From: an uncultured Sulfurospirillum sp.
GTDB taxonomy: Bacteria > Campylobacterota > Campylobacteria > Campylobacterales > Sulfurospirillaceae
DNA: 64,000 bases
Direction of reading: 5' to 3'
NCBI GenBank assembly: GCA_965306065.1
Contig: CBDLTN010000001.1
Location: forward strand, 1,955 to 65,954
Below are positions 1,989-63,256 of this stretch, one piece after another (the stretch's first letter is position 1; each line of letters opens with the position of its first letter). A program made the translations under genes and the position numbers. The notes beneath the pieces were generated by a model. The model was not told the origin of the DNA and searched no databases. It saw nothing but the letters and a program-made list of their open reading frames with translations.

Positions 1989-2867
1989 TTATCTATTTAA
2001 AATGGCAAAGTACATAGCAGCACCTAATATTTTATGTGTAGCTCTGCTAAAATGCCATTCATCCCAAAAATAATAAGTATCAGGATCTCCACTATTTGTT
2101 AAAATCTCTGGATATGTACTTTGGTACTCTTTACTTAATTGAGAAATTCCATACTTTTTTGGGTTACTCACAATATCGTTACTTACTATAGTATGATCAA
2201 ACAACACTATTGATATATCCAAATTTTTTTCAAGGTTGGAAAGAGTTCTTGGAAGAGTTTCATTTATTGTATCAACAAATATTTTTGCAAAATCAGTTCT
2301 CTTCATAATTATCTCATATGGAACAAGAGACAAGTCACTACTATTAACAACAAAGAAATTTTTTGCTCCTAGCTTTACTAACCTTTTTATAGCAATATTT
2401 ATATTACTAACTACATTATTTGCCAACTTTTCAATTGTGCCTGTCTTGTTAAAATCCATATGAGCAAAATAATCATTTTCACTTGCAAATATAAAATACA
2501 ATGCATTAGTATCTATTTGGTTTACATGTAAACTATTTTCAAATTTATCAACTTGTCCTAACAGCCCTGTATTTCCAAGATAATCCATCCATGTAGAATA
2601 ATTTTTATCTCCTGAAGTGGCACCACCAGTTGCATAGTTTATTAATCTTGTACCTAATTTTTTTGCCATAACTTCAACTGCTGTGTATCCATTAGAGTAT
2701 CTATTGTTCCAGTACAATCCTTCAGTGGGTTTTATAAATGAATCTTTTGGACTATTTTTGTGCTCAACGATAGCTGAAGATGTTTTTCTTGCTTCCCCGT
2801 TATCTGAATAACTATTTCCAAATGCAACTATTTGAGTTATTTTTTTTACATTATTGATTGCCGACAT
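1989..2867 (-). CDS. SGNH/GDSL-family lipase/esterase
   Basis: Block I is FGNSYSDNG (a GDSL variant) and the C-terminal FWDEWHFS supplies the DxxH catalytic block. The gene starts 20 nt after the ribA stop, so it is probably co-transcribed. Confidence 0.7.
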   Translation of the reverse strand: MSAINNVKKITQIVAFGNSYSDNGEARKTSSAIVEHKNSPKDSFIKPTEGLYWNNRYSNGYTAVEVMAKKLGTRLINYATGGATSGDKNYSTWMDYLGNTGLLGQVDKFENSLHVNQIDTNALYFIFASENDYFAHMDFNKTGTIEKLANNVVSNINIAIKRLVKLGAKNFFVVNSSDLSLVPYEIIMKRTDFAKIFVDTINETLPRTLSNLEKNLDISIVLFDHTIVSNDIVSNPKKYGISQLSKEYQSTYPEILTNSGDPDTYYFWDEWHFSRATHKILGAAMYFAILNR

Positions 2868-2887
2868 GTTATTTCCTATATAGTAAA

Positions 2888-3463
2888 TTAAAAAAGATGG
2901 CCCATTTGCTCTTTTTTTATTTTTAAATAATTTGCATTGTATTTATTAACCGGCATTATAATAGGCATTCTCTCAACAATATCTACTCCATTAAGTGACT
3001 CTATTTTTTTAGGGTTGTTAGTTAATAATTTAATTTTTTTAATTTTGAAATGTGCTAGTATAAATTCAACTGCTTCATAACTACGTTCATCCGTTTGAAA
3101 GCCAAGTTGATGATTAGCCTCGATAGTATCATATCCTTGATCTTGTAGTGCATAAGCATTTACTTTATTTAATAAACCAATATTCCTTCCCTCTTGTCTT
3201 AAATAAATAACCATTCCACCAGATTTACCAATTATCTTTAAAGAGTGTTCTAGCTGATCTCTGCAATCGCATTTTAAAGAACCTATAGCATCACCTGTTA
3301 AACATTCACTGTGAACTCTTACTATTGGTATTTCATTAAGGTGTTCACTAAAAATAACTAAATGTTCTTTTACTCCCTCTTGAAACACTTGAATTTTAAA
3401 TTGCCCAAACTGGGAAGGGAGCTTTGAAACGTTTGAAATATTAATTCTCATTTTATTATCCAA
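2888..3463 (-). CDS. ribA: GTP cyclohydrolase II
   Basis: VRVHSECLTGDAIGSLKCDCRDQL carries the zinc-binding Cys triad, and YLRQEGRNIGL is a classic RibA motif. Confidence 0.9.
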   Translation of the reverse strand: MDNKMRINISNVSKLPSQFGQFKIQVFQEGVKEHLVIFSEHLNEIPIVRVHSECLTGDAIGSLKCDCRDQLEHSLKIIGKSGGMVIYLRQEGRNIGLLNKVNAYALQDQGYDTIEANHQLGFQTDERSYEAVEFILAHFKIKKIKLLTNNPKKIESLNGVDIVERMPIIMPVNKYNANYLKIKKEQMGHLF

Positions 3464-3496
3464 TCTTCATTCAAAAATAAACATCGTGTTTATTTT

Positions 3497-3509
3497 ATAA
3501 TCATGATTT
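3497..3509. promoter_or_regulatory. Operator-like 13-mer AAATCATGATTAT in the ribA leader (identical to 1866-1878)
   Basis: Exact 13-nt identity with the etfB leader element, located 9 nt downstream of the -10. Confidence 0.5.
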
Positions 3510-3518
3510 ATTTTTTGA

Positions 3519-4102: not shown

Positions 4103-5251
4103 ATGAACACCAAAAAATTTAGAAAACCAGAAGTATTTACAATTTCTATTGCACACTTTATGCACGATATATACTCATCTTTTTTAGCACCACTTCTACC
4201 TCTTCTTATAGAAAAGCTTGGTATGAGCCTTTTTATGACAGCTTTTTTAGATATAGCCCGTCGTATTCCTTTTCTTCTTAATCCATTTTTAGGTCTACTT
4301 GCAGAAAAAACTGGACTAAAATACTTTGTTATTCTAACACCTGCAATAACGGCTATTTCAATGAGCCTTGTAGGACTTGCAAACTCATACATTGCCCTTG
4401 TTATACTGATTTTTGTTGCAGGTATTAGTGCTGCTTTATTCCATGTCCCATCTCCTACTATGATAAAAGAAGCCAGTGGTGATAGAGTAGGAACTGGTAT
4501 GAGCTTTTTTATGGTTGGAGGAGAGAGTGCAAGAACACTTGGTCCTCTTATTGTAACAGCTGCTGTTTCATTATGGGGACTTGAAGGAATTTATAAACTT
4601 ATGCCATTAGGTATCTTAGCTTCTGTTATCTTATATATAAAACTAAAAGATTTTGATACAAATAGACCTCTTCAAAAACCAAAAGAAAAAGGTGATACAA
4701 AAAAACTTCTGAAAACCTTTAAACCTTTTTTCTTAGTTCTTGGAGGATTTTTGCTTTTTCAATCAGCTATGAAAAGTGCTCTTACACTTTATCTACCAGT
4801 CTATCTTGTAAACCAAGGTGAATCTCTGTGGTATGCTGGTATTTCTATCTCTGTACTTCAACTTTTTGGTGTTATTGGAACACTTATTGCAGGAAATATA
4901 TCAGATAAAATTGGAAGAAAAACTACTCTTGTAATAGCTAGTTTTGGTATGGTTATAAGCATGGCTCTTTTTATTCTTTTTAATACTATTTTTATTCTAC
5001 CTCTTGTTGGTCTGTTTTTATTTGCTACAGGACCAGTTCTTATGGCAACTGTTCAAAGTACAAGCTCACATATGCCTACTTTTATGAACAGCATGTATAT
5101 GTCCATAAACTTTGGGGTTAGTGCAAGTATAGTTTTTGGAGTTGGTTTTTTAGGCGATTATTTAGGACTTTATTCAACTTATATTATCTGTAATATTATG
5201 GCATTAGGTTGTATACCTATGGCTTTTTTACTTACTAATTATATTCGTTAA
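4103..5251 (+). CDS. MFS transporter
   Basis: 382 aa with about 12 predicted hydrophobic helices and an MFS-like loop (DKIGRKTT). Confidence 0.75.
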   Translation: MNTKKFRKPEVFTISIAHFMHDIYSSFLAPLLPLLIEKLGMSLFMTAFLDIARRIPFLLNPFLGLLAEKTGLKYFVILTPAITAISMSLVGLANSYIALVILIFVAGISAALFHVPSPTMIKEASGDRVGTGMSFFMVGGESARTLGPLIVTAAVSLWGLEGIYKLMPLGILASVILYIKLKDFDTNRPLQKPKEKGDTKKLLKTFKPFFLVLGGFLLFQSAMKSALTLYLPVYLVNQGESLWYAGISISVLQLFGVIGTLIAGNISDKIGRKTTLVIASFGMVISMALFILFNTIFILPLVGLFLFATGPVLMATVQSTSSHMPTFMNSMYMSINFGVSASIVFGVGFLGDYLGLYSTYIICNIMALGCIPMAFLLTNYIR

Positions 5252-7149
5252 GTTATTTTTGTTGCAATTTCTTTAAACTTATCTTTTAACACTATAAAAG
5301 CATCAACAAGAACAGGGTCAAAATGAGTTCCTCTTGCGTCTATTATAATTTGTTCTGATTTTTCATATGAGATAGAATCTTTATAAACCCTTTTACTTAT
5401 AAGTGCATCATATACATCAGCCAGTGCCATCATCCTTGCTTCTAGTGGTATCTCTTCACCTTTTAAGCCATTGGGATAACCTTCTCCATTCCATTTTTCA
5501 TGATGATAATAAGATATACGCAATGCTGTTTTTAAAAACTCATTGTCTTCATGCTCTCCTAAAGCATTTTCTAAAACCTCTTTACCTATTTTTGGATGTT
5601 CTTTCATTATTTCAAACTCTTCTTCTGTCAATTTTCCCGGTTTTTTCAAAATGTTATCAGGAATAGCGACTTTCCCAATATCGTGAAGAGGACTTGCTCT
5701 ATATACAAGAGAGATAAACTCTCTTGTTACTACGTCTTTATATATCTTATTTTCATATAAATATTCACTCAAACAATTAACATACTCTTTTGTTCTTTTA
5801 ATATGTGCTCCAGTTTCTGTATCTCTACTCTCTACAACTAATGCCATACTATCAATAGCACTTGAGTGTGCTTTAGTTAACTCTTTATAAAAAATCTGTT
5901 TTTCTGTGTAATTGATAACTACCAATATAATATTGATTGTAAAAAAAACTATTCCAAAAGGAATTAAAAAATATGCTGATGATATATATACATTTTGGCT
6001 CAACATTACTAATGATAATGCGAAAAAAGAAGTGATTACTGATATAAAAACCACTATAATTTTTATTTGATTTTTTATGTACATGTAAAAAAGAAGAATT
6101 ATAGAAAACAAGATAGAGAGTAAAATATTTACTTTTTTCATAGTAGGTAGCTCATACCTTAAAACATCGTTTAATATATTATCTACTAAAGTTGCATGAA
6201 TCTTAACACCTGATAGATTATCTCCACTTGAAACTATATATCTATCATGAAGACCCACTGCTGATGTTCCAACAAAAACAAACTTTCCTTGTAATATTTT
6301 TTTATCTACTTTACCCAAAAGCAAATCAACTGCTGAAACAGTTTTATACCAACTTTTATCATAAAATTTTAATAAAACTTCTTTATTCTCACCCGTTTGT
6401 ATCACATGGTCTAGTATAGAGACACTTTTTTTATCTATTGTTACTTTATCTATACTCATAAGACTAGCAAGTCCAAGAGTTGGAACTATATTATCTTTGT
6501 ATTTCATGAAAAGTGGTAATCTTCTAAATACTCCATCTGAGTCTTGTGAAGAATTTATAAACCCTATATTAGCACTGTTTTTTTGAATTTTTTGGATATT
6601 ACATAATATATTTTTTGCTTCATATCCTATATTTGAACTATCATTTACTTGAATATTTTGTTTTGGCAGTATACATTGTGAATGTTTTTTAATAGTATTA
6701 CTTAAATAAACAGCAAGTGTAGTTTTTGAATTACTTAATACTCTTGTAAATACCTCATCACTATCAAGTAAGTTTTTGGGTAAACCCTTTACACTTACAT
6801 TTGTTCCAAAATATTTTTTATAAAACTCTATCATGTTATTTGGAGATGTTTTATCAGTTTCCGGAAAAATAATATCTAGCCCGATAGATGAAGGGTTTGC
6901 ACTGTTTATATTATGAATAAGCTTTGCTAGTATAACTCTAGACCAAGGCCACTGCCCCATATAATCTAAACTCTTTTCATCAATATCAACTACTACAACA
7001 GAACTTTTTGAATTTTCCTCACTTGCAATAATATTGCTAGAGAAGTCATATATTTTATAATCAAGCTGTTCTATAATCTCGCTTCTAAATAAAAGAAGAT
7101 TAAATCCAACTATTAAAAAAAATCCAAAAAGTGCTTTTGAATATTTCAT
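5248..7149 (-). CDS. CHASE2 sensor domain / HD-GYP c-di-GMP phosphodiesterase
   Basis: The N-terminal periplasmic CHASE2-like region (DIDEKSLDYMGQWPWSR) is followed by TM helices. The C-terminus carries HDIGK...HHEKWNGEGYP...GTHFDP, the HD-GYP signature. Confidence 0.85.
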   Translation of the reverse strand: MKYSKALFGFFLIVGFNLLLFRSEIIEQLDYKIYDFSSNIIASEENSKSSVVVVDIDEKSLDYMGQWPWSRVILAKLIHNINSANPSSIGLDIIFPETDKTSPNNMIEFYKKYFGTNVSVKGLPKNLLDSDEVFTRVLSNSKTTLAVYLSNTIKKHSQCILPKQNIQVNDSSNIGYEAKNILCNIQKIQKNSANIGFINSSQDSDGVFRRLPLFMKYKDNIVPTLGLASLMSIDKVTIDKKSVSILDHVIQTGENKEVLLKFYDKSWYKTVSAVDLLLGKVDKKILQGKFVFVGTSAVGLHDRYIVSSGDNLSGVKIHATLVDNILNDVLRYELPTMKKVNILLSILFSIILLFYMYIKNQIKIIVVFISVITSFFALSLVMLSQNVYISSAYFLIPFGIVFFTINIILVVINYTEKQIFYKELTKAHSSAIDSMALVVESRDTETGAHIKRTKEYVNCLSEYLYENKIYKDVVTREFISLVYRASPLHDIGKVAIPDNILKKPGKLTEEEFEIMKEHPKIGKEVLENALGEHEDNEFLKTALRISYYHHEKWNGEGYPNGLKGEEIPLEARMMALADVYDALISKRVYKDSISYEKSEQIIIDARGTHFDPVLVDAFIVLKDKFKEIATKIT

Positions 7150-7151
7150 AA

Positions 7152-7751
7152 CTATTTTATAAATATCTCAACACGGCGATTTTTTGCTTCTGCTACATTA
7201 TCTTTAGTCGGAACCAACAAATCACTCTCACCGTATGATTTAACTTTTAGGTTAGTTAAATCTACATTTGAAGAAAGCACCCAACTTTTTACATACTTTG
7301 CACGTTCAAGTGCCAATTTCGTATTGTATTGACTTGAACCTTTTGTATCTGTATGCCCTATTATATTCACATCACAAGGCATTCTTTTTTTTATTTGTAT
7401 CAAAATATACGGCAATTTTTCTTTTGAGGCATCAGTGAGTTCATTTGAATTATTTTTAAAATATAAGTTTACATGTATAGGTTCTAAAGGCATTGCTTCG
7501 ATTGCACTTTTAAACTTTTTGTCAATCTCTTCTTGACTCATTGTCTTAATTTTACTTGGAGCTTCCCTTTTTGAAGTTAAACTTACATATTGCCCTGCTT
7601 TATATATAGTAGTTGAGCCAGCTTCTGTCTGAACCACTATTGCATTTTGTTTATCTCCACTATCAGCTAAAACTATAGTTGTTGTAGTTTGTGTATTCAT
7701 TAAAGAAGCCACAAACATAATAACCCATGTGGCAATTACAGCTACTTCCAT
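7152..7751 (-). CDS. OmpA-family peptidoglycan-binding protein
   Basis: C-terminal OmpA_C motif: IIGHTDTKGSSQYNTKLALERAKYV...NRRVEIFI. Confidence 0.8.
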   Translation of the reverse strand: MEVAVIATWVIMFVASLMNTQTTTTIVLADSGDKQNAIVVQTEAGSTTIYKAGQYVSLTSKREAPSKIKTMSQEEIDKKFKSAIEAMPLEPIHVNLYFKNNSNELTDASKEKLPYILIQIKKRMPCDVNIIGHTDTKGSSQYNTKLALERAKYVKSWVLSSNVDLTNLKVKSYGESDLLVPTKDNVAEAKNRRVEIFIK

Positions 7752-8216: not shown

Positions 8217-9248
8217 TTAACTCAATACTAAGCTTTGTCCTTCAAATTTTTTTACTTCTGCTACGATGTTACTATATTCATAACCAATGTTTTTCAACCT
8301 TTTTACAAGCCTAGTAGAATCACACTCTTTTACAGCTATTAACAACCCACCAGAAGTTTGTGCATCATAGAAAAATATTTCGTTTTTGTACTCTTTTTTT
8401 GCATTTACATGTAAAGAGATATAGTCTTTATTATTATATGTTCCAGCTGGAATTATTCCCATATTTGCCAACTCTATAGCTTCATCCATAATTGGAATAG
8501 CATCAAAATCAAATTCTAATGTAAAATTTTTGCCACTCATCTCATAAGCATGTCCTGCAAGACCAAAACCTGTTATATCAGTACAAGCACTCACATCAAA
8601 TTCTCTCATAATTACTGATGCTTTATGGTTTAGTTGGGCTAATATATCCGCTGTTTTACGAACAGATTTTTCCTCTAACATATCTGCTTTTATAGCAGTT
8701 GTTAAAACTCCCATCCCAATTGGTTTTGTTAGTATTAAAACATCTCCAACTCTAGGAGTATTGTTTCTATAAATCTTTTTTGGATGTACAAAACCACTAA
8801 CGCTAAGACCATAAGTCATCTCAGGAGTCTCTATAGTATGCCCGCCAACAATAAGTCCACCACACTCTTTTACTTTACTAAGTCCGCCTTGAAGAATCTC
8901 TCCTAAAACTTCTTTTGGATGATTGCACCCATCAAAACCTACAAGATTAAGTGCAGTTGTTACATCGGCTCCCATTGCAAATACATCACTAAGAGAGTTT
9001 GCAGCAGCAATTTGACCATATATATAAGGGTCATCCACCACAGGAGTTATATAATCTACTGTTTGTACTAATGCTTTAGTATCATCTATTTTATATACGC
9101 TTGCATCATCACTACTATCAATTCCTACTAAAAGATTTTCATCTTTACATGTAAGAGTACTAATAACTTTTGTAAGCTCACCCGGAGCCAGTTTAGCAGC
9201 TCAACCTGCAGCTTTTACATACTTAGTTAATTTGTGTTTATTGTTCAT
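8217..9248 (-). CDS. selD: Selenide, water dikinase (selenophosphate synthetase), selenocysteine-containing
   Basis: The track ORF 8217-9041 extends in frame through TGA at 9201-9203 to the ATG at 9248. The N-terminus is MNNKHKLTKYVKAAG-U-AAKLAPGEL, matching the SelD G(C/U)xxK active-site loop. Confidence 0.9.
9176..9188 (-). ncRNA. Candidate SECIS upper hairpin of selD (GCUC-CGGGU-GAGC)
   Basis: The stem starts 12 nt after the UGA and has a G/U-containing apical loop, with spacing like the fdhA element. Confidence 0.45.
9201..9203 (-). other. In-frame UGA recoded as selenocysteine (codon 16 of selD)
   Basis: The frame is continuous on both sides with SelD homology. The position equals the catalytic Cys/Sec of SelD. 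Confidence 0.85.
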
Positions 9249-10272: not shown

Positions 10273-11313
10273 TTACAGTGTCCACCAACGAACATTGGTT
10301 GTATCAATGTTAACATAAATTTTATCACCAGGTAAAAATCTCTGTTTTTGCATTACTTCTTTACATATACGACTATTAAAATTTACTCCACCTATAGTAA
10401 ATTCTATATAAAGATCATCAAAAGAGTGTTGCTTTCCAATAGAAGAGACTACTCCTTCTAAAGACTCATCATTTACCATATCTTCATAGTTCTCTCTACA
10501 AATACTAATTGCACTTGAATCTATCATTACTACAGAATCTCTTTTTTTAGATGCGCTATTTTTTATTGTTAATGATTGCCCGTCTAAAAAGTACTTAACT
10601 AAATTTTTATTCTCATCTTTTTTCCAAGGGGCAAAAAGAAGATTTACATTACCACTCTCTATCAAGTTTCCTTGAAACAGTGCCACACGTTTATCACAAA
10701 TTTGATTAAGCCACTTATGATCATGACTAGAGATAAAAATAGTGGTATTCCATTTTTGTTTAGCAATAAGTATAGCCTCTTTAATCAACTGAGCAGAATT
10801 TGTATCTACACCAGTAGTAGGTTCATCTAAAATTAAAACCTTTGGACGCAAAATAAGCCTAGCAGCTAATGCTACTCGTTGTGCTTCACCACCTGAGAGT
10901 TGACTCCATTTACGTTTTGCAAAAGATAGATCAAGCCCAACAATACTTAGAGCTTCATCTATTTTTTCTTTTAAATTACATGTATCTTTTCTAAGTTTTA
11001 ATCCATAGGCAATATTCTCAAATACAGATCGTTTTAATAAATATGGATTTTGAGGAACCATTATGACATCTTGCCTCATTTTAGTGTCAATTTTTTTAGT
11101 ATTTATACCATTGAATGTTAAATCACCAACAGTTGGTTTATCAATAAATGAAAGCAACGAAAAAAGCGTTGATTTTCCACTTCCATTAGGTCCAAAAAAA
11201 CCAATAATCTGATTTTCTTCTAAAGCCAAATTTTCAATTCCAAGAACTTTTTTTCCATCATAGTGCTGTTCTACATTGTTTAATTCATAAAGTTTATTCA
11301 TTATTGTGTCCAC
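10273..11313 (-). CDS. tupC: Tungstate/molybdate ABC transporter ATP-binding protein with a C-terminal TOBE-like domain
   Basis: Walker A GPNGSGKST, signature LSGGEAQR and Walker B LILDEP are present, with an about 110-aa C-terminal extension. The gene lies in a tupABC arrangement. Confidence 0.8.
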   Translation of the reverse strand: MDTIMNKLYELNNVEQHYDGKKVLGIENLALEENQIIGFFGPNGSGKSTLFSLLSFIDKPTVGDLTFNGINTKKIDTKMRQDVIMVPQNPYLLKRSVFENIAYGLKLRKDTCNLKEKIDEALSIVGLDLSFAKRKWSQLSGGEAQRVALAARLILRPKVLILDEPTTGVDTNSAQLIKEAILIAKQKWNTTIFISSHDHKWLNQICDKRVALFQGNLIESGNVNLLFAPWKKDENKNLVKYFLDGQSLTIKNSASKKRDSVVMIDSSAISICRENYEDMVNDESLEGVVSSIGKQHSFDDLYIEFTIGGVNFNSRICKEVMQKQRFLPGDKIYVNIDTTNVRWWTL

Positions 11314-52189: not shown

Positions 52190-52200
52190 TTACATGTAAA
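52190..52200. repeat. Single intergenic copy of the iterated palindrome (TTACATGTAAA) fused to the rdgB Shine-Dalgarno
   Basis: The reverse strand reads cTTTACATGTAAGGAaaataaGTG. Confidence 0.8.
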
Positions 52201-53004: not shown

Positions 53005-54145
53005 AGAAGAAAAAAGAACTTTTTATAGCTTCTTAGCATTATATCTTGGTTCATCTTTGCTTCTTATTGCAATAATCTCATGGCTTTTTTACTCTTCTAG
53101 TTCAAAGCAACTTAAAGAGTTAACTATATCAAAAATGGAGATAACAGCTAGCGATATCTCTCATAAAATCATCCAAGCACATATGCAGGGTTTTAATTTG
53201 GACTTACAAAACTTAAAAACAGATATCAATTTTAAATATGCACTATTTGATAACAAACTCAAACCCATACACACGCAGTTCAATGCAAACTTAGATTTTT
53301 CTCAAAAAATTTTTAAAAAAAACGACTCTATGTTTTACATAGATAAAGGAACAACAGGACATCTAGCAGTCTCTTATGTAGTTATAAAAGAAAACTCTTT
53401 AAGTAACAATCTTCTTGAACTTAAAAAAAATATCATTTTTGCAACTATCATTATATATATCATCATCGCTATAATAGGTTTTTCATTAGCAAAACTTTTT
53501 ATCTATCCCATTCAAGCTCAAAGAGAAAAGTTAAATCGTTTTATAAAAGATACTACACATGAGTTAAACACTCCATTATCAGCCTTACTCTTATGCACTA
53601 GTGATGATAACTTTTTTAGTGAAACAAATAAAAAACATATAAAATTAAGTGCTAAAAAAATCTCTAATCTATATAAAGACCTTACATATCTAACACTACA
53701 AGATCATCAAAAAAATGCAACTAAAAAAATAGATATTTATAAAATTCTAAATGAAGAGTTATCTTACCACTCTCAACTTGCATCTAAAAAAAAGATAACT
53801 ATAAATCACTCTTTAGAAAAAACTCTTTATAAAATAGATAAAGAAGATTTCATAAGAATTACAAACAATTTACTCTCAAATGCAATAAAATATACAAAAA
53901 GAGATGGAGAGATAAACATAACTCTAAAAAATTCAATTCTTAGTATTCAAGATAACGGTATAGGCATAGAAAAAGACAAACTAAAAAAAATATACGAACG
54001 ATACTACAGAGCTACTCAAAGTGTAGGAGGTTTTGGCATAGGTTTAAATATCGTCTATACAATATGCAAAAGCTACAATATAAAAATATCTGTAAAATCA
54101 AAACCCGAAAAAGGAACAACTTTCGAATTAAATTTTAAAAATTAA
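52985..54145 (+). CDS. Sensor histidine kinase (CusS/CopS-like by context)
   Basis: TTG start overlapping the regulator gene. It has two TM helices, the H-box TTHELNTPLSA and the G-box GGFGIGLNI. Confidence 0.85.
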   Translation: MVIVLTKEEKRTFYSFLALYLGSSLLLIAIISWLFYSSSSKQLKELTISKMEITASDISHKIIQAHMQGFNLDLQNLKTDINFKYALFDNKLKPIHTQFNANLDFSQKIFKKNDSMFYIDKGTTGHLAVSYVVIKENSLSNNLLELKKNIIFATIIIYIIIAIIGFSLAKLFIYPIQAQREKLNRFIKDTTHELNTPLSALLLCTSDDNFFSETNKKHIKLSAKKISNLYKDLTYLTLQDHQKNATKKIDIYKILNEELSYHSQLASKKKITINHSLEKTLYKIDKEDFIRITNNLLSNAIKYTKRDGEINITLKNSILSIQDNGIGIEKDKLKKIYERYYRATQSVGGFGIGLNIVYTICKSYNIKISVKSKPEKGTTFELNFKN

Positions 54146-54205: not shown

Positions 54206-54238
54206 TTTACATGTAAGGATTTTATCCTTACATGTAAA
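54206..54238. repeat. 33-bp perfect palindrome built from two copies of the iterated motif (TTTACATGTAAGGAT-ttt-ATCCTTACATGTAAA)
   Basis: Read directly from the sequence. It lies between box 1 and box 2, upstream of the cus-type operon. Confidence 0.9.
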
Positions 54239-54829: not shown

Positions 54830-56028
54830 TGATTACAAAATCATTATTGATATCTTCGCTAATCATATCATCAGGCTTTTCACTTGGGCTTGATGATATA
54901 GTAAATGACGCTTTAAAAAACAGCTATGATTTACAAAAACTAAACAAAAACCTTCAAATAACAAATGAAGATATAAAACTTAGCGATAAATGGAATAATC
55001 CAACTATTTCAATTGGTGCAAATGACATTCATTTTGATACTCCATTTGCTAGAGACAAAGAAGCAATGCAATCTAATTATGTATCTATCAGTCAAGTCAT
55101 ACCAATAAATGGAAAACTAAAATATAAAAAAAACATAGCCATTCAAGATAACAACATAGCACACATGGACTTGGAAAACAAAAAACTACAACTCTCTTCT
55201 TTGATATATGAGTATGGTTATAAGATTTTAATAAACAAACAAAAATTAGCTCTTATAAATGAGTATCAAAAAAATACAAAAAAGCTACATGAGATTGGAC
55301 TAAGCCTATATGAGAGCGGGAAAGTTAATCAAATAGTTCCTCTTAAAACTGACCTTTTGAGTTCTAAATTAGAAATTCAAAAAGAAAATATCAAGTTTGA
55401 ACTAAAAAATTTAAATACCAAACTAGAACAGATTACCTATAAAGAAGTTTTAGGCTTAGATGATTCTATTGAGTTAAACGAAATTCATGCAATAAAAAGT
55501 GACATAAGCTCTCATCCGGTACTAGTATCAATTGAGTATAATAAAATAAAATTTAATAACCTTGCCCTTTTAGAAGAGTCAAAAAAATACTCCGATATAA
55601 AAGTAAACTTAGGATATTTTTCCAGAGATGATAAGTTTGAAGATTATGCCAACTTGTCTTTTTCTATGCCTCTTCCAATATATGGAAATGAAGAAGCAAA
55701 AGTTGCAAAAGCAAGATACCAAGCGTCTAAAACACAAGATGATTTAAAGATAATAAAAACGCAATTTGAAAAAAACTTCTCCACACTTAAAGAGGAGATG
55801 AAAAAATCTTTTATTAACTATCAAACTTTATCAATCAACATGATACCTCAAAGAGAATTTATACAAAAAAACATACACTCTCACTACCGCTTAGGACATA
55901 TGAAAAGTGTAGACTTGTTATCAAATATCAATGAAACTATATCCTTAGAGCTATTAGCCCTTGATGAGTTGTCCAAATATTATAGTGCTTATGCGAAAAG
56001 TAAATACTACACAGGAATAAAAAAATGA
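54829..56028 (+). CDS. cusC: TolC-family outer-membrane efflux protein
   Basis: 399 aa with two OEP-like repeats. It is translationally coupled to its neighbours. Confidence 0.75.
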   Translation: MITKSLLISSLIISSGFSLGLDDIVNDALKNSYDLQKLNKNLQITNEDIKLSDKWNNPTISIGANDIHFDTPFARDKEAMQSNYVSISQVIPINGKLKYKKNIAIQDNNIAHMDLENKKLQLSSLIYEYGYKILINKQKLALINEYQKNTKKLHEIGLSLYESGKVNQIVPLKTDLLSSKLEIQKENIKFELKNLNTKLEQITYKEVLGLDDSIELNEIHAIKSDISSHPVLVSIEYNKIKFNNLALLEESKKYSDIKVNLGYFSRDDKFEDYANLSFSMPLPIYGNEEAKVAKARYQASKTQDDLKIIKTQFEKNFSTLKEEMKKSFINYQTLSINMIPQREFIQKNIHSHYRLGHMKSVDLLSNINETISLELLALDELSKYYSAYAKSKYYTGIKK

Positions 56029-57029
56029 AATACTTTACTCTGCTCTTTTTTATGCTTATAAGTCTAAATGCGAAGATTATAGAAGTTGACCAACTCTTTA
56101 ATAAGTCTCTTATAAGTGTAAAAGAGAAAAACATAGAGATAAAAAAAAGTTTTTATGGAAAAACTGCAATAGATGAATCAAAAATTGTTGACATAACTAC
56201 TAGATTCGATGGTTTTATAGAAAGACTATACGCAAATAAATCTTTTATGTATATAGATAAAACAAAACCACTTTTTTCTGTATATTCAGATGAGATAGTC
56301 TCAGTTCAAGAAGAATTACTTCTTGCAAAAAAAATCAAAAATCAAAAATCTATTTATAAAAGTGCTTACAACAAACTAGCAAGTTTAGATTTACATGTAA
56401 AGACTCTAAATCAAATCAAATCAAGCAAAAAAGTAATACAAGATATAGCTGTTTACTCTCCAATAGATGGATATTTGATACAAAAAAACATAAATGATAA
56501 AGCCTTTATCAAAAAAGGTAATCTTATCATGAGAATTGCTGATTTTTCACAGCTTTGGTTTATAACCAAAGTATATCAACAAGACCTAGAATTTATCTCT
56601 AAAAACATGAAAGCTCTTTTACATGTAGATGGAGTTAATCTGCCTATAGAAGCAAGGGTTGATTATATATATCCCTCAGTTGATAAAAAAGAACAAACAG
56701 TTGATGTAAGAATTATTCTTGATAATAAAGATTTAAATCTTTTTCCAAATATGTTTGCAAAAGTTGAACTGTTTAAAACTCAAAGAAAAATGCTCACACT
56801 TCCTAAGAGTGCAGTTTTAACAAAAGGCGATAAACATTATGTTTTCAAACCTATTGATGAAAAAGAGTTTGAACCAATTGAGATTACTGCAAAAAGAATT
56901 AATAGCCAAGTATTTGAAATTATAGATGGTCTTAATAAAGGAGATAAGGTTATAGATAAAGTACTGTTTATGCTAGATAGTGATGCTCTTACTAATGGTC
57001 TTTACTCTTCTGATGATGAAGATTGGTAG
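56025..57029 (+). CDS. cusB: RND efflux periplasmic adaptor (membrane fusion protein)
   Basis: HlyD/CusB-like barrel-sandwich pattern, located upstream of the RND pump. Confidence 0.85.
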   Translation: MKYFTLLFFMLISLNAKIIEVDQLFNKSLISVKEKNIEIKKSFYGKTAIDESKIVDITTRFDGFIERLYANKSFMYIDKTKPLFSVYSDEIVSVQEELLLAKKIKNQKSIYKSAYNKLASLDLHVKTLNQIKSSKKVIQDIAVYSPIDGYLIQKNINDKAFIKKGNLIMRIADFSQLWFITKVYQQDLEFISKNMKALLHVDGVNLPIEARVDYIYPSVDKKEQTVDVRIILDNKDLNLFPNMFAKVELFKTQRKMLTLPKSAVLTKGDKHYVFKPIDEKEFEPIEITAKRINSQVFEIIDGLNKGDKVIDKVLFMLDSDALTNGLYSSDDEDW

Positions 57030-57038: not shown

Positions 57039-60000
57039 ATGGTAGAAAAGATAATAGACTTTAGTATAAAAAACATCTTTCTCGTACTTTTTAGTACAAT
57101 TATTCTTATAAGTGGTTCTATTTGGGCAGTTAAAAATACTGCTCTTGATGCACTCCCTGATTTATCTCCTCCACAAGTAATTGTACAGATAAAATGGAAA
57201 GGGCAATCTCCAACTACAATTGAAGAACAGATAAGTTATCCACTTATCTCAAATCTACTCTCTTTGCAAAACATTGATACAGTTCGTGCTATGAGTAGCT
57301 TTGAAAATGCTCTTATCTATATCATCTTTAAAGATAAGGCTGATATTTATGATGCAAGAACAAGAGTTTTAGAACAGCTATCTCAACTCTCTGCCACTTT
57401 TCCAAAGGGCTCTTCGGTAACAATTGGTCCTGATGCAACTGGTGTTGGTTGGGCTTATGAATATGCATTGAAATCAAAATCAAAAAGCTTAGAAGAGCTT
57501 AGAACTTTACAAGATTACTTTTATAAATATGGTCTTTTAGGAGTTGATGGGGTCAGTGATGTTGCCTCAATAGGTGGTTTTGTAAAAAATTATGAAATAA
57601 CTATAAATCAAGATAAGTTAGTACAACACAATTTAAACATAAATGATATAAAAAAGATAATATCAAATAGCAACGATGACAAAGGTGGAAGAATCATTTT
57701 AGAAAATGGTTTTGAACATATCATTCAAGCAAAAGGATACCTTAAAAGTGTTGTTGATATAGAAAATATAGTCATTAAAAACATTAATGCAACTCCTCTT
57801 AAAATCAAAGACATAGCAAGTGTCAATATTACATCTTCTAATAGACGTGGTATGGCTGATTTAGATGGTGAGGGAGAGAGTGTAGGTGGTATAGTTATCA
57901 TAAGATATGGAGAAAATACTTATGATGTTATCAAAAATGTAAAAAAGAAACTCGAAACTCTTAAAATCGACGATGTAGAGATAGTTGAAGTATATGATAG
58001 AAGTTCTCTTATTGATAAAGCAATTGATACACTAAGAAATACTCTTATCGAAGAGAGTGCCATAGTTATGATAATCTCTGGACTATTTTTGTTTCATTTT
58101 AGAAGTGCTCTTATCATCATCATAACTCTTCCTATAACTGTTCTTTTTACTTTTCTTTTTATGAAGTTTTTTGGACTTGGAAGTAATATTATGAGTCTTG
58201 GAGGAATTGCAATTGCAATTGGTGCTATGGTTGATGCAACAATTGTTATGGTTGAAAATGCCCACAAGTATATACACAAAGCTACACTAGAACATGGAGA
58301 AATTACAAATAAACAAAGAGTTGATATTATCATCAAATCTTCTAAACAAGTTGGTCGTCCTATATTCTTTGCTCTCATTCTTGTTGTGGTTTCATTTTTA
58401 CCTATCTTTGCACTAACCGGACAAGAAGGAAAACTTTTTTCACCCTTAGCATTTACTAAAACATTTGCTATGTTATCAGGTGCATTTTTATCTATAACAC
58501 TGGTTCCTATTTTGATGATATTTTTTATAAGAGGTAAGATTCTTCCAGAAAATAAAAACTGGTTAAATAAATTTTTTACTATCCTTTATGTACCATTTTT
58601 AAAGCTTTCATTGAAAATTAGATACTTTGTTATTTTAGGCTCAATTGCAATGGTTGTTCTAACTTATCCAATTTATAAAAAACAAAATTGGGAATTTATG
58701 CCTATGATAAATGAGCAAACTTTTATGTATATGCCAGTAACACCTTATGGAATTGGTGTAGATTTTGCTAAAGAGTTAACTCAAAAAACAAATAAAATTA
58801 TAAAAAGCTTTCCAGAAGTAGAAACAGCATTTGGTAAAGCTGGACGAGCAGATTCTGCAACTGATCCAGCTCCACTTGCTATGATAGAAACTATCATACA
58901 ATTCAAACCAAAAGAGCAGTGGCGTGAAGGAATGACTCATGAAAAATTAATGCTTGAAATGGATAAAAAACTTCAAGTTGCAGGACTCATCAACTCATGG
59001 ACTTATCCAATAAGAGGTCGTATAGATATGCTTCTAACTGGTATTAGAACGCCTCTTGGAATCAAGCTGTATGGAAACGACCATCAGAAACTAGAAGATA
59101 CCGCATTTTCAATTGAGACAAAATTAAAAGAGTTAAAAAACTATACTCTTTCAGTATCATCAGATAAAATCAATAGCGGATACTATCTAAATATAGACAT
59201 TGATGATGAAAAGATTTCACGTTTTGGAATCACAAAAGATGACATATTAAAAGTTGTTCAACTAAGTATTGGTGGTGGTAAAATTAGTACTATGATAAAA
59301 GGCCTTGAAAGATACCCAATCAGTTTAAGGCTAGAAAATCAACAAAGAGCTGATCTTACAAGCGTTAAAAGAATACAGATAAAAACAAACCTTGGGTTTT
59401 ATCCATTAGAGACTTTTGCAAATATCTATTACAAAGAGGGTCCTAGTGTCATAAAATCTGAAAAAGGTATGAATGTAAACTTTGTTTATATAACACCTAA
59501 AACAGGAATTTCCTCTAAACAGTATAAAGACATAGCTCAAGAAGCACTAAAAGATATAAAACTTCCTGATGGTTTTTATTTTGAATGGGCTGGACAAAGT
59601 GAATATCTAGAAAGTGCTATGGAAAAACTAGCATACATAATACCTCTTACTTTCATGATAATCTTTGTGCTTATTCTTATGGCATTAAAAAACTTTTTAT
59701 ATACTTGTATCATTTTTTTCACTCTTCCATTTGCAATAACTGGAGGAATTTGGTATCTTGATTTTCTAAATTTCAACATCAGTATAGCTGTTATAGTTGG
59801 TTTTTTAGCTCTGCTTGGAGTTGCTGCTGAGACTTCTATAGTAATGATAGTTTATCTCGATGAAGCCTTAAAAGAGTTAAGAGAAAAAGGTTTGAAATTC
59901 AATAAAAAGAATATATATTCTGCTGTTTATAATGGTGCCGCTTTAAGATTAAGACCAAAACTAATGACGCTATTTGCCATTATGGGAGGATTAATCCCTA

Positions 60001-60155
60001 TAATGTACATAAATGGCGTGGGAAGTGAAGTTATGCAGAGAATTGCTGCACCTATGATAGGAGGTATGTTAACTTCTGCCCTACTCACACTTATAGTCAT
60101 CCCTTCTATTTTCTATATGATTGCTTTAAATAGAAAAGAAAAACTACTAAACTAA
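57039..60155 (+). CDS. cusA: Heavy-metal (Cu/Ag) efflux RND transporter, CusA/CzcA family
   Basis: 1038 aa, 12 TM helices. GGIAIAIGAMVDATIVMVEN is an HME-RND signature. Confidence 0.92.
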   Translation: MVEKIIDFSIKNIFLVLFSTIILISGSIWAVKNTALDALPDLSPPQVIVQIKWKGQSPTTIEEQISYPLISNLLSLQNIDTVRAMSSFENALIYIIFKDKADIYDARTRVLEQLSQLSATFPKGSSVTIGPDATGVGWAYEYALKSKSKSLEELRTLQDYFYKYGLLGVDGVSDVASIGGFVKNYEITINQDKLVQHNLNINDIKKIISNSNDDKGGRIILENGFEHIIQAKGYLKSVVDIENIVIKNINATPLKIKDIASVNITSSNRRGMADLDGEGESVGGIVIIRYGENTYDVIKNVKKKLETLKIDDVEIVEVYDRSSLIDKAIDTLRNTLIEESAIVMIISGLFLFHFRSALIIIITLPITVLFTFLFMKFFGLGSNIMSLGGIAIAIGAMVDATIVMVENAHKYIHKATLEHGEITNKQRVDIIIKSSKQVGRPIFFALILVVVSFLPIFALTGQEGKLFSPLAFTKTFAMLSGAFLSITLVPILMIFFIRGKILPENKNWLNKFFTILYVPFLKLSLKIRYFVILGSIAMVVLTYPIYKKQNWEFMPMINEQTFMYMPVTPYGIGVDFAKELTQKTNKIIKSFPEVETAFGKAGRADSATDPAPLAMIETIIQFKPKEQWREGMTHEKLMLEMDKKLQVAGLINSWTYPIRGRIDMLLTGIRTPLGIKLYGNDHQKLEDTAFSIETKLKELKNYTLSVSSDKINSGYYLNIDIDDEKISRFGITKDDILKVVQLSIGGGKISTMIKGLERYPISLRLENQQRADLTSVKRIQIKTNLGFYPLETFANIYYKEGPSVIKSEKGMNVNFVYITPKTGISSKQYKDIAQEALKDIKLPDGFYFEWAGQSEYLESAMEKLAYIIPLTFMIIFVLILMALKNFLYTCIIFFTLPFAITGGIWYLDFLNFNISIAVIVGFLALLGVAAETSIVMIVYLDEALKELREKGLKFNKKNIYSAVYNGAALRLRPKLMTLFAIMGGLIPIMYINGVGSEVMQRIAAPMIGGMLTSALLTLIVIPSIFYMIALNRKEKLLN

Positions 60156-60186
60156 TTTACATGTAAGGAATTTCCTTACATGTAAA
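60156..60186. repeat. 31-bp perfect palindrome built from two copies of the iterated motif (TTTACATGTAAGGAA-t-TTCCTTACATGTAAA), starting 1 nt after the cusA stop
   Basis: Read directly from the sequence. It probably forms a terminator/processing hairpin. Confidence 0.9.
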
Positions 60187-60563: not shown

Positions 60564-60995
60564 ATGAAAAAAATATTAATTTTATTGGCAATATCATTGT
60601 CGTTTAGTTATGCCCAAATGGCAAAAGATATGGTTGTTTATAAAACACCTTACTGTGGATGTTGTACTAACTGGATAGAACAGATGAAAGACAAAGGATT
60701 TAACATCAAAACTATCGTTCAAGACAATTTTGATAAGATGAAAATGTCAAAAGGCATCACACCACAAACTGCTTCTTGTCATACTGCTTTGATTGATGGT
60801 TATGTTATAGAAGGACATGTAAATTACTCAGCAATTAAAAAATTATTGACTGAAAAACCAAAAGATATAAAAGCTTTAAGTGTTCCTGGTATGGTAGTAG
60901 GAAGCCCTGGTATGGAAATGGGTAACAAAAAAATGCCTTATAATATCATCGCAATCAAAAAAGATGGTTCAACTGAAGTTTACGAGAAACATTAA
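60564..60995 (+). CDS. DUF411 / CopG-like periplasmic copper-binding protein
   Basis: It has a signal peptide, a CGCC (CxCC) motif, and later SCH...EGHV and PGME(M) blocks typical of the family. Confidence 0.75.
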   Translation: MKKILILLAISLSFSYAQMAKDMVVYKTPYCGCCTNWIEQMKDKGFNIKTIVQDNFDKMKMSKGITPQTASCHTALIDGYVIEGHVNYSAIKKLLTEKPKDIKALSVPGMVVGSPGMEMGNKKMPYNIIAIKKDGSTEVYEKH

Positions 60996-60998
60996 TAT

Positions 60999-62201
60999 CT
61001 ATTTGTTTTTTTGACTTCTTTTTTCTAGATACTCTAACAAATCAAACAACTCCTTATTTTCTCGAGTTAGTTTTGATTTGTTGAGTGACTTTAAATAGTA
61101 TCTTAAAAAAGTCAAACAACTATATGGATAATCTATCCCTGCTTCTTTAAAATGACGACTAATTATCATTGAAGAGCTAGCTTTTTCCCACATCATCCTA
61201 TCAAATAAAAATGCCATAGAATCTAAAATTTTTACCAAATTACCAATATTTTTTTCATAAGATGATTCAAATTTTTTCTTAAACTCTTCAAAGAAAAGTT
61301 CAAAATACTCATTAGTGATAGGCAGAAGCATTTCATTCTCTTCACGCAAAGTTCCTACTCTATCAATCGCATCAACATAAAGTCTTTTTACATGTTTTAT
61401 ACTCTGTTTTAAAGGAACAATACTCTCATCATCTTTCTTTAAATGGCTCAAATCTTTCATCTTCTGTTTTATTTCGCTCTCCATTACAGATAGATTTGTT
61501 TTTATACTAGCCATTTCAGAGATATTTTTTTCTAATCGTCTTTTTGCCTCTTTATATCTTGTTTGCTTTAAAAAAATCGTAGAAAAAGCAATCTTAGGAT
61601 ACATAAAACTTTTTTTATAGATATCATGAATACTATTTATCTCTTGGATATTTCTATACATCTCAGTCAAACTTCCATCAGCTAAAGAGATGTCGATTTC
61701 AAGTAAATTATTATATGCAGTAAACAAGAAACGTTTCATTTTTAAGTAATCCAACTCTTCTTCATCAGATTGGAGTTGATAGTCTTTATACTTACTTACT
61801 GTATCTTGCAATGAAGAGAAAAACTTTGTCATAGTAGCTTCTATAAAACCACGCGGTACATTTTTTGCTGAATAAGAATCAGTGTCCAGTTTACTTTTCT
61901 CTAAATCTTCTTCACAAGAGCCAAACATATCAGTTGCTATAATCATCCTTGCTGCTTCTTCTATAGAAGTAGGTACATCTTTTTTATCTTTTTGAATATC
62001 TTCTACGACAATTGGTTCTTTAAACTTTATAACACTTTTTATTTTATTCTCTTCAAGTTCTAAATAAACCTTAAGACCAATGCCAGGCATATTATCAAGG
62101 TCATCCCACATTTCAATATTAAATTTGTATTTTTGCTTATCTTGTGAAAGTATCAAGCCTGAGCCATCATCAAGATTATAAAAGATTATAGTACCGTTCA
62201 T
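60999..62201 (-). CDS. Hypothetical protein, 400 aa: small N-terminal beta-rich domain plus a long helical/coiled region
   Basis: A long ORF with ordinary codon usage. No recognisable motif or TM segment. It lies downstream of the arginine kinase gene. Confidence 0.6.
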   Translation of the reverse strand: MNGTIIFYNLDDGSGLILSQDKQKYKFNIEMWDDLDNMPGIGLKVYLELEENKIKSVIKFKEPIVVEDIQKDKKDVPTSIEEAARMIIATDMFGSCEEDLEKSKLDTDSYSAKNVPRGFIEATMTKFFSSLQDTVSKYKDYQLQSDEEELDYLKMKRFLFTAYNNLLEIDISLADGSLTEMYRNIQEINSIHDIYKKSFMYPKIAFSTIFLKQTRYKEAKRRLEKNISEMASIKTNLSVMESEIKQKMKDLSHLKKDDESIVPLKQSIKHVKRLYVDAIDRVGTLREENEMLLPITNEYFELFFEEFKKKFESSYEKNIGNLVKILDSMAFLFDRMMWEKASSSMIISRHFKEAGIDYPYSCLTFLRYYLKSLNKSKLTRENKELFDLLEYLEKRSQKNK

Positions 62202-62254
62202 ACACTCTTTCCTTTTAATTATGATAGCACAATACTTTTAAAAAATATATTTAT

Positions 62255-63256
62255 TTATTGTCTATATAGGTTCTTATCCTCTTTCAACAAAACTTTTACA
62301 CCATCAATTACATCTTGAATACACTCAACTTCGCTCACTCCCAACCTACGCTTATTGCTTATATCAAAGATATTTTCTTCGCTTTTAGAATGCTCTCCAT
62401 GTATGCCTCTTATCTGCAGATGATATTCCTTGCATATTTCTTCAAGTTTAAACATGTTTTTTGAAAGATTTGGAAGTTTTAGGTGTACACTTGCACGCAT
62501 TGCTGTGCCTAAGTTAGTTGGGCAACTTGTTATATATCCTAGATTATCATTATATAAAAAATCTAAACTCTTCTCTAATTCAATTAAAAATTTAACCAAA
62601 CGAGAAAAAACTTCTTTAATATCTCCACCTTTTTGCATAGATATAATACGAAGCTGGTCTTCTTCATTTACCCAAACTAAAAATGTCTTCTCTTCATTAT
62701 GATAAATTCCACGACCACTTGGCCAGTCTCGATTAAGTCCTGCTGCTTCAAGAAATCTATCTCCCTCTTTAAATAGAAAATGCTCTTTTATCAAAGAGTT
62801 TTTTTCTTCTTTGCTTAAAGATTCAAGTGAATAGTATTTTCCTTTACATGTAAGAGATTTTATAGCTGATATAACTCTTCTTTCAACTTCAGATCTTTGT
62901 TTTTTAGAGATATTTGTTCCAAGTGGAAAATCTCTTAAATTTCTACCTACTCTTATTCTTGTTGAGATGATTTTATCTTCATCAATAACTGCATCTTTCA
63001 AACCCTTTACATGTAAAAATGTTCTATGTTTATCTTCTTTGTCAAATCCATGATACTCTTTAATAATAGGAGAAAAAACTTTAGCAAAAAGCTCATAAGA
63101 CTCTTCATCTCCTGCATATATTCCTATACTGCTATCTGGGTTTTTCACACCAGAGTTTATAGCCATATCTAAAGTGTATCCTGATTTGGTTTTTAAACTT
63201 TTTAACTCTTGATAAATCTCATCTTTTAGGTTCTTTTTCATTAATGATGTTTCCAT
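62255..63256 (-). CDS. Phosphagen (arginine) kinase, eukaryote-type ATP:guanido phosphotransferase
   Basis: CPTNLGT active-site signature; NEEDQLRIISMQKGGD; HFLFKEGDRFLEAAG..RDWPSGRGIYHN; IRGIHGEHS...IFDISNKRRLG. These blocks closely resemble invertebrate arginine kinases. Confidence 0.88.
   Translation of the reverse strand: METSLMKKNLKDEIYQELKSLKTKSGYTLDMAINSGVKNPDSSIGIYAGDEESYELFAKVFSPIIKEYHGFDKEDKHRTFLHVKGLKDAVIDEDKIISTRIRVGRNLRDFPLGTNISKKQRSEVERRVISAIKSLTCKGKYYSLESLSKEEKNSLIKEHFLFKEGDRFLEAAGLNRDWPSGRGIYHNEEKTFLVWVNEEDQLRIISMQKGGDIKEVFSRLVKFLIELEKSLDFLYNDNLGYITSCPTNLGTAMRASVHLKLPNLSKNMFKLEEICKEYHLQIRGIHGEHSKSEENIFDISNKRRLGVSEVECIQDVIDGVKVLLKEDKNLYRQ

Follow-up and report, generated by a model that had tools for sequence, protein, structure and literature searches.

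A highly iterated palindrome specific to the Sulfurospirillum lineage and maintained as a DNA word, with a possible role in natural transformation

We have analysed a 64-kb stretch of DNA from an uncultured Sulfurospirillum species (contig CBDLTN010000001.1; hereafter the window) together with ~250 kb of protein-anchored loci, all of them pieces rather than whole genomes. The octamer TACATGTA is a lineage-specific highly iterated palindrome, which extends to TTACATGTAA, TTTACATGTAAA and cTTTACATGTAAAg and is maintained at the DNA level. Its role in natural transformation, as a self-DNA word resembling either the cyanobacterial palindrome HIP1 (highly iterated palindrome 1) or the DNA uptake sequences (DUS) of Neisseria, is our leading guess; it is unproven, and we give it rather less than an even chance.

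Altogether, the window contains 31 exact copies of the 8-base palindrome TACATGTA, compared with 1.53 expected from dinucleotide-preserving shuffles, in which the maximum was six. The initial annotation of this DNA had listed 30 octamers; every listed site exists, one copy (44891) was missed, and the starts given mix 8-, 10- and 12-mer coordinates. Its figures for the longer forms were accurate: 19 copies extend to the 10-mer TTACATGTAA (0.21 expected from shuffles) and seven, placed to the exact base, to the 12-mer TTTACATGTAAA (0.04 expected), and all copies short of the 10-mer retain a half-site, TTACATG or CATGTAA. When the 8-mers of the window were ranked under an order-3 Markov model, TACATGTA came out on top by a wide margin (31 vs 1.56). 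A maximal-order ranking was set aside as uninformative, because the sub-words of the palindrome carry the same enrichment, and the order-3 and shuffle nulls were used instead; the GC-rich k-mers flagged by Markov ranking were isolated singletons, dispersed over the window and forming no island. Across the window and the sampled pieces of Sulfurospirillum genomes the excess over chance is 20-90-fold. Neither CATG overall (169 vs 155-166 expected) nor ACATGT outside TACATGTA is enriched in the window, and the word is enriched rather than avoided, which is not the pattern of restriction-modification avoidance.

An excess of this kind might arise with no DNA-level feature behind it: by chance, from codon usage, through conservation of the LHV and TCK peptides that the word encodes, or as remnants of small mobile elements. 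AT-rich genomes do inflate the counts of AT-rich words, and fixing the proteins raises the expectation. Codon-aware nulls were therefore applied to the 23 copies in called open reading frames (ORFs; map of 56 genes). Permutation of codons within genes gave 1.6 copies in coding sequences (CDSs; maximum 6), and permutation of synonymous codons with the proteins fixed gave 6.3 (maximum 13, 500 runs). None of 100 and none of 500 shuffles approached the observed counts. As the 23 copies exceed both nulls, the excess lies in amino-acid choice and synonymous-codon choice alike, and the enrichment proposed earlier is genuine and stronger than had been noted. The word, moreover, occurs in two reading frames and between genes.

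The flanks of the 31 copies are mirror-symmetric: positions -1 and +8 are T and A in 25 copies each, positions -2 and +9 are T and A in 23 copies each, and C at -3 and G at +10 occur 15 and 14 times, respectively; the extended consensus is cTTTACATGTAAAg, a palindrome of ~14 bp. Around the copies no conservation was found past ~14 bp; an element body, which mobile-element remnants would have, is therefore lacking. Repetitive extragenic palindromes and miniature inverted-repeat transposable elements combine a long body with an exclusively intergenic location, whereas here ~14 bp are conserved and 77% of copies lie in frame within genes. The exact palindromic octamer in more than ~15-fold excess (31 vs 1.5 in the window, 11 vs 0.12 in S. 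diekertiae) and the palindrome-preserving extensions, visible as mirror-image flank counts, are features of the HIP class. The core tolerates little change: among 12-mers with at most one mismatch the 8-mer core is intact in all except one, and the one-off variants of the 8-mer, in twelve classes, occur at background level (observed/expected 0.4-3.5), the one class outside that range having zero copies against 0.6-1.6 expected. The transition neighbour of the core, TATATGTA/TACATATA, is the most depleted one-off variant among those with a meaningful expected count (pooled, 8 observed vs 18 expected).

This depletion, and the preference for the exact core over every neighbour, might point to a neutral by-product, in which a methyltransferase-linked activity, either site-specific nicking or repair of the very-short-patch type, turns near-cognate sequences into the exact word and the copies have no function. 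Foreign DNA without the word would also fit such a process, which would in addition mimic the conservation of sites. We consider it quite unlikely, as the 20-90-fold excess is hard to reconcile with known very-short-patch effects (those of Vsr in E. coli shift word frequencies less than ~2-fold) and holds over GC contents of 30-51%. The flanks are, besides, shaped out to 14 bp, the changes at variable orthologous sites are not chiefly C/T transitions, and the intergenic copies are arranged as hairpin pairs.

Most copies (~77%) are singles within genes. Twenty-four are distributed over 16 CDSs, 23 of them in called ORFs and one, at 9146, in the N-terminus of SelD. The initial annotation had counted 23 copies in 15 CDSs; it was right that the genes are unrelated, and its gene names hold up, while the copy at 44891 has to be added. 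It had also described the use of almost only two frames with a single Y-M-Y exception at 6080, and the frames are indeed distributed as 14 x-H-V, nine T-C-x and one Y-M-Y. The proteins concerned are unrelated to one another, and the word occupies variable places in them, in two stop-free frames.

The x-H-V frame is used by the cores at 2523-2530 (12-mer 2521-2532; S-L-H-V-N in the GDSL lipase ORF 1989-2867 (-)), 7470-7477 (I-H-V; OmpA-like ORF 7152-7751 (-)), 45674-45681 (V-H-V; short-chain dehydrogenase ORF 45458-46276 (-)) and 51435-51442 (S-L-H-V; carboxynorspermidine dehydrogenase, 50379-51593 (-)). It is read as L-H-V at 8406-8413 (12-mer 8404-8415; SelD), 20862-20869 (Fe-S protein ORF 20064-21749 (-)), 32249-32256 and 33029-33036 (both in SelA, the second within the 12-mer 33027-33038), 33493-33500 (SelB), 38109-38116 (12-mer 38107-38118; PAS-GGDEF ORF 37514-39520 (+)), 41367-41374 (histidine kinase ORF 40232-41455 (+)), 56392-56399 (12-mer 56390-56401) and 56620-56627 (both in the CusB/HlyD-type ORF 56025-57029 (+)), and 63008-63015 (12-mer 63006-63017; arginine-kinase-type ORF 62255-63256 (-)). 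Copies read as T-C-K have their cores at 13404-13411 (ModE-domain ORF 12922-13659 (-)), 20660-20667 (the Fe-S protein ORF), 37603-37610 (the PAS-GGDEF ORF), 41110-41117 (the histidine kinase ORF), 44891-44898 (carboxynorspermidine decarboxylase, 44358-45461 (-)) and 62845-62852 (the arginine-kinase-type ORF). T-C-N is encoded at 10977-10984 in the TupC-like ABC ATPase ORF 10273-11313 (-), and T-C-I at 21386-21393, again in the Fe-S protein ORF. The last T-C-K copy, at 9146-9153, lies in the N-terminal part of SelD between the in-frame UGA (selenocysteine) codon and the called ORF start; it appears intergenic in the ORF list, where the SelD ORF was called without this stretch, the ORF caller having cut it off because of the UGA codon. 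The only Y-M-Y copy (6080-6087) is located in a cyclic di-GMP phosphodiesterase/response-regulator ORF, 5248-7149 (-).

The other seven copies are found in ~5.4 kb of non-coding DNA, compared with 24 in ~58.6 kb of coding DNA, which makes the non-coding density about threefold higher. Six of them form three pairs, each just past the stop of a gene. The first pair, 43863-43896 (+), with cores at 43865 and 43887, begins 16 nt past the stop of a DEAD-box helicase gene and has a 14-bp stem (-18.4 kcal/mol). The second, 54206-54238 (+), with cores at 54208 and 54229, lies ~60 nt past the stop codon that ends a histidine kinase gene (52985-54145) and folds at -21.1 kcal/mol, and the third, 60156-60186 (+), with cores at 60158 and 60177, starts 1 nt past that of an AcrB/CusA-type pump gene (57039-60155) and folds at -18.5 kcal/mol. 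All three pairs fold to hairpins of 13-16 bp (z ~ -6.3 each), and the same design, TTACATGTAAGG-loop-CCTTACATGTAA, is present in other Sulfurospirillum contigs. A T-run follows one of the three pairs and is short (TTTT after 43887). The single remaining intergenic copy (52191-52198) lies upstream of a Ham1-like gene (51590-52180 (-)), 11 nt from its GTG start, and adjoins the ribosome-binding site of that gene. Intergenic enrichment with inverted hairpin pairs after genes is typical of DUS and of the uptake signal sequences (USS) of Pasteurellaceae. Scans of the window for tRNA genes and Rfam families found nothing.

The pairs bring in another explanation, that the word constitutes a binding-site array of an abundant nucleoid-associated or regulatory protein, or a building block of terminators, with the copies in CDSs as spill-over. 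A palindrome of 12-14 bp is a typical footprint of a dimeric helix-turn-helix protein, the three pairs fold strongly right after stops, and some phage contigs carry regulatory arrays of the same 14-mer, so that proteins reading this sequence probably exist. We nevertheless rate this explanation as very unlikely: 77% of copies are single and inside genes, the word is 10-50 times denser than the known chromosome-marking palindromes bound by Noc, SlmA and MatP, and a binding protein would tolerate one-off variants, yet these are not enriched. For a terminator, even a short T-run is found after only one of the three pairs.

Conservation at orthologous sites separates the DNA word from the peptides it encodes. 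Among relatives of ~80% identity, the exact 8-mer is kept in 32 of 46 site-by-genome comparisons (70%), the corresponding background being 24% over the remaining 8-mers together and 20% over those with an identical composition. Averaged per site, retention is 0.60 vs 0.23, a value matched by 20 of 20,000 random sets of 10 sites; conservation above background, another feature of the HIP class, is thus seen on 10 independent sites. The SelA copies at 33029 and 32249 are kept in 8/8 and 6/8 relatives, respectively, the SelB copy at 33493 in 5/5, and those in the Fe-S protein ORF in 6/6 (20862) and 2/6 (20660) aligned relatives and in 3/7 relatives (21386), and the PAS-GGDEF copy at 38109 in neither of two aligned relatives. 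Sites 20862, 33029 and 33493 are fixed, and those at 20660, 21386, 32909, 32952, 38109 and 41367 were gained or lost inside the clade.

In SelA, the clade encodes LL-HV-E at site 32249 and AL-HV-K at site 33029. Out-group SelA proteins have N-V, G-C, A-C, N-C, K-C, G-T or G-A at the first position and H-I, S-I, S-L, T-I, A-F, F-I, E-I or K-L at the second. The out-group orthologues thus differ in residues and in DNA, and the word cannot be attributed to protein conservation; the suggestion of the initial annotation that selection acts on the DNA word rather than on the peptide was borne out. The S-L-H-V site of carboxynorspermidine dehydrogenase (51435), a position of the word that the window shares with S. 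diekertiae and S. arsenophilum, corresponds to KGYGE, KTSTK or KGL-GE in the solved homologues 4ina, 4rl6 and 8h4z, and is therefore a variable loop. In the SelA genes of two relatives (L003 and L008), the peptide LLHVE is kept at site 32249 and the word has decayed by synonymous changes, to TTCACGTT and TTCATGTT; judged from these sequences, the peptide looks like a fossil of a lost copy and not the cause of the word. It is the DNA word itself, and not the encoded peptide, that is maintained. With out-group orthologues lacking both peptides and word, the reading by chance, codon usage, peptide conservation or mobile-element remnants is refuted.

The word has a restricted distribution. In the SelA comparison, scanned with one genome per species, the window adjoins Sulfurospirillum arcachonense (83-89% SelA identity). 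In the S. arcachonense clade the word is present at all eight loci, with densities of 0.26-0.78 copies per kb, and the other 47 SelA-anchored loci have zero or one copy each. Among the latter, no copy was found in 138 kb from five Arcobacteraceae and three other Campylobacterales loci; this out-group sample is thin, and the chromosomes of Campylobacter, Helicobacter, Wolinella, Sulfurimonas and Sulfurovum lie outside it. Thus, the scope of Campylobacterota, in which the initial annotation had discussed the word, was too wide, the word belonging to lineages of the Sulfurospirillum/Sulfurospirillaceae type. All 15 protein-anchored Sulfurospirillum-type loci carry it, at 0.14-1.0 copies per kb and GC contents of 30-42%. 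In the loci anchored on carboxynorspermidine decarboxylase there are 11 copies in 21 kb of S. diekertiae CP023275.1 (0.12 expected), nine in 21 kb of S. arsenophilum, and 11, 8, 20, 14 and 3 per ~20 kb in five further lineages (67-76% identity). The highest density, 20 copies in 19 kb (~1 per kb, GC 0.34), is that of L239 (GCA_047974135.1, JBKECC010000156.1), where 19 copies are 10-mers and 13 are 12-mers; this lineage would be a good place to seek the recognition machinery. L240, a metagenome-assembled genome labelled 'Campylobacteraceae bacterium' (GCA_031270285.1), has the lowest density among the Sulfurospirillum-type loci, three copies in 21 kb and no 10-mer. Its contig edge (1-480) holds eight repeats of GTCTAGAC with the look of a CRISPR-type array, and GTCTAGAC was rejected as a replacement palindrome, the repeats forming a CRISPR-like array with ~65 bp spacing.

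A pattern scan of metagenomes for paired copies, which was seeded with the motif and hence biased, as were the viral loci, returned many contigs with further dispersed copies, in three GC classes (~0.30-0.35, 0.38-0.45 and 0.47-0.55). Those that could be placed are Sulfurospirillum: L180 groups with Sulfurospirillum sp., the motif-seeded and word-rich L144 (GC 0.51) with S. tamanense, and L148 and L182 are syntenic with the formate-dehydrogenase and ModE regions of the window (60-79% amino-acid identity). The word is therefore a Sulfurospirillum/Sulfurospirillaceae trait that has outlived a large shift in base composition, from ~30% to ~51% GC. The degree of extension differs by lineage: in the window, 19 of 31 copies are 10-mers, and in L003 3 of 10, whereas for S. 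diekertiae and S. arsenophilum taken together 18 of 20 are 10-mers and 14 of 20 are 12-mers. A hyper-abundant, lineage-specific word with such dialects is what is seen with DUS and USS. Extrapolation from the sampled densities gives ~1,000-1,500 copies per genome of 2.5-3 Mb.

Several motif-seeded matches were excluded. In L123 (2397-2861), L160 (27-155), L216 (279-439), L234 (5207-5411), L176 (2453-2563), L142 (3401-3882) and L137 (747-1027), all from metagenomes, TTACATGTAA sits within longer tandem repeats with periods of 21-52 bp; these are unrelated arrays that merely contain the word. Viral contigs were rejected as evidence, because their copies occur in tight arrays of ~200 bp in phage regulatory regions, are not dispersed, and are therefore uninformative on hosts. 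The phage arrays consist of 4-6 copies of (C)TTTACATGTAAA(G) per ~200 bp of non-coding DNA, at L072 358-545, at L095 11430-11657 and L086 1204-1431 (one IMG/VR contig), and at L087 9480-9518. In L072, which encodes a phage sigma factor and has one GCGATCGC, the array is interleaved with TTGACA-like boxes; L087 encodes a portal protein. By their look, these arrays could be operators or promoters recognised by some DNA-binding protein, and they probably have no connection with the host-wide word.

The centre of the word is a methylation target in a congener. According to the supplement of Blow et al. 2016, S. barnesii SES-3 carries N6-methyladenine (m6A) at 99.1% of its cATg sites, in line with the remark in the initial annotation on CATG methylation; the enzyme is M.Sba3II (Sulba_2268), a Type II methyltransferase for which, unlike its neighbours in the table, no partner endonuclease is listed. 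The word centre would therefore be expected to carry m6A on both strands in at least one congener. Sulfurimonas denitrificans also methylates CATG (44.9%), and the mark alone can therefore neither explain nor specify a word of 8-14 bp. The evidence for an orphan methyltransferase comes from M.Sba3II of S. barnesii, a species outside our word counts; the window has no methyltransferase gene.

The word might also be a methylated mark of the HIP type with a housekeeping role, its sites being kept by selection for that role; nucleoid or domain organisation, timing of replication or segregation, strand discrimination in repair, and global epigenetic regulation are candidates. It has every sequence-level trait of HIP1 (octamer, extensions, 20-90-fold excess at ~0.5 per kb, location in CDSs and between genes, site conservation), in a congener an enzyme that seems to be an orphan places m6A in its centre, a parallel to the methylation of GATC within HIP1, and the sharp, all-or-none core suits an enzyme site. 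However, neither periodicity nor a link to expression supports such a role, 64 kb being too short for either; the hairpin pairs and the absence from new DNA fit this and the transformation reading alike; and recent work on HIP1 favours transformation. A housekeeping mark seems to us unlikely, though it deserves some weight.

The initial annotation had named HIP1, DUS and USS as the closest precedents, and both comparisons stand: with HIP1 the word has in common the palindromic octamer, palindromic extensions and site conservation, and with DUS/USS the lineage specificity, hairpin pairs after genes and permissive frames. HIP1 (GCGATCGC) and the Sulfurospirillum word are both exact palindromic octamers extending palindromically to 10-14 bp, occur in 15-300-fold excess at ~0.3-2.7 copies per kb in CDSs and intergenic DNA, are conserved at orthologous sites, vary in density and extension by lineage ('dialects'), and have a central tetranucleotide methylated to m6A by an apparently orphan enzyme (GATC in HIP1; CATG in S. 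barnesii). The word is not HIP1 proper, because sequence and phylum differ: it is AT-rich and belongs to Campylobacterota. Furthermore, one-off variants are common for HIP1 and not enriched here, a second, 6-mer-specific methyltransferase is known only on the HIP1 side, and HIP1 is phylum-wide, whereas our word is limited to one genus or family. DUS and USS are likewise lineage-specific words of ~10-12 bp at ~0.5-1 per kb with dialects; they, too, occupy permissive positions in genes, are enriched between genes, form inverted-repeat hairpins after genes and are sparse in new DNA. They differ in being asymmetric and in having an experimentally shown uptake bias and, for DUS, the ComP receptor, and the DUS class is defined by the uptake phenotype, whereas the Sulfurospirillum word, a perfect palindrome, is known from sequence alone.

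The closest case by phylum is RAATTY of Campylobacter jejuni, a palindromic motif on which adenine methylation by CtsM marks self DNA for uptake; a methylated palindrome can, therefore, serve Campylobacterota in telling transforming DNA apart. The RAATTY motif is a degenerate 6-mer, common by composition and not hyper-enriched. Our word, in contrast, is 8-14 bp long and 20-90-fold in excess, which argues for recognition beyond the CATG methyl mark. Chi and the binding sites of Noc (NBS), SlmA (SBS) and MatP (matS) are also short words, recognised by proteins that process or bind DNA and subject to selection across the chromosome, and a Chi-like role has been suggested for HIP1. Chi differs in being asymmetric, strand-skewed and few-fold enriched, and NBS, SBS and matS in numbering tens per genome, being regionally confined and tolerating degeneracy.

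In the mechanism that we propose for natural transformation, a symmetric, presumably dimeric, recognition protein would read the word as double-stranded DNA, with N6-methyladenine in the central CATG as measured in S. barnesii. The word would serve as a watermark of 'self': fragments that bear it, probably in methylated form, would be preferentially taken up or recombined, and cycles of uptake and recombination would spread copies through the resident genome and maintain them there. Parallels may be drawn with the DUS of Neisseria, the USS of Pasteurellaceae, methylated RAATTY in C. jejuni and HIP1 in cyanobacteria. C. jejuni accepts DNA only when it is methylated at RAATTY, and methylated HIP1 raises cyanobacterial transformation up to 100-fold, HIP1 now being proposed as an uptake sequence; these precedents make the transformation reading plausible.

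One region of the window deserves special attention in this respect. A strain-specific [NiFe]-hydrogenase operon of 6.5 kb (21836-28357 (-)), with genes for the small subunit, an Fe-S subunit, an NrfD-like membrane subunit, the large subunit and the HycI protease, is lacking in each of the seven S. arcachonense-clade relatives in which the junction is covered. At 0.34-0.36, its GC content is above the ~0.30 of the surroundings, and it is probably a recent acquisition. The operon is free of the word, with ~3 copies expected at the window density (P ~0.04).

Several points weigh against a role in transformation. The absence of the word from a single 6.5-kb insertion is weak evidence when taken by itself, although it agrees with slow accumulation in resident DNA alone. 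Site conservation rests on only 10 independent sites in kin genomes. CATG methylation is shared with Sulfurimonas, a genus outside the word sample, and was measured in S. barnesii, a species in which the word was not counted. No methyltransferase, restriction or competence gene was found within the window, nor any candidate for a dedicated receptor such as the minor pilin ComP, and we found no report of natural competence in Sulfurospirillum in the literature. Finally, the two proven uptake sequences, DUS and USS, lack symmetry, and variants one base off are somewhat enriched for them, whereas the perfect palindrome described here, with variants at background, looks more like an enzyme site.

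We have also identified a selenium-utilisation neighbourhood in the window, on the grounds that two selenoprotein genes occur together with SelA, SelB and a TusA-domain gene. Both selenoprotein genes (8217-9248 (-) and 16139-18976 (-)) were split by ORF callers at the in-frame UGA. The first is SelD (…KAAG-U-AAKL…, UGA at ~9201-9203) and the second encodes the catalytic subunit of formate dehydrogenase (…HQARI-U-HSATVAG…, TGA at 18410-18412). In the response-regulator ORF 31171-31839 (+), the C-terminal region weakly matches the RepL family (PF05732, E = 1.5e-6), which probably reflects a mere winged-helix DNA-binding domain.

Hyper-abundant genomic words are rare; those that have been well studied are DUS, USS and HIP1, the last with a role under debate for 30 years. 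In the full-text literature we found no published account for Sulfurospirillum either of this word or of any iterated palindrome or uptake sequence; it is also absent from papers on comparative genomics and on the avoidance of restriction sites in which the genus is named, and literature searches with the raw sequence returned unrelated primers and sites only. What is new, then, is that a HIP/DUS-like genomic word occurs in this phylum; its centre, CATG, bears a methyl mark that was measured in S. barnesii. Going further, TTACATGTAA might be the first sequence-specific signal for self-recognition or DNA uptake in Campylobacterota and an independent second origin of the methylated palindromic watermark of HIP1 type, with a dimeric reader of m6A-marked incoming DNA and more than 1,000 copies written into each Sulfurospirillum genome, reshaping proteins on the way; from the comparisons made here we regard this fuller proposal as doubtful and advance it tentatively.

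If true, the word would be a second, unrelated methylated iterated palindrome. The genus is culturable, spans 30-51% GC and offers natural density variants (0.14-1.0 copies per kb), which makes it an independent system in which to study the function and spread of such words. Selection at the DNA level overwrites amino acids in unrelated proteins, in the form of H-V and T-C dipeptides. In practice, the word may serve as a marker for binning Sulfurospirillum contigs and for spotting foreign islands and, if transformation is affected by it, could lead to better genetic tools for the organohalide-respiring members of Sulfurospirillum.

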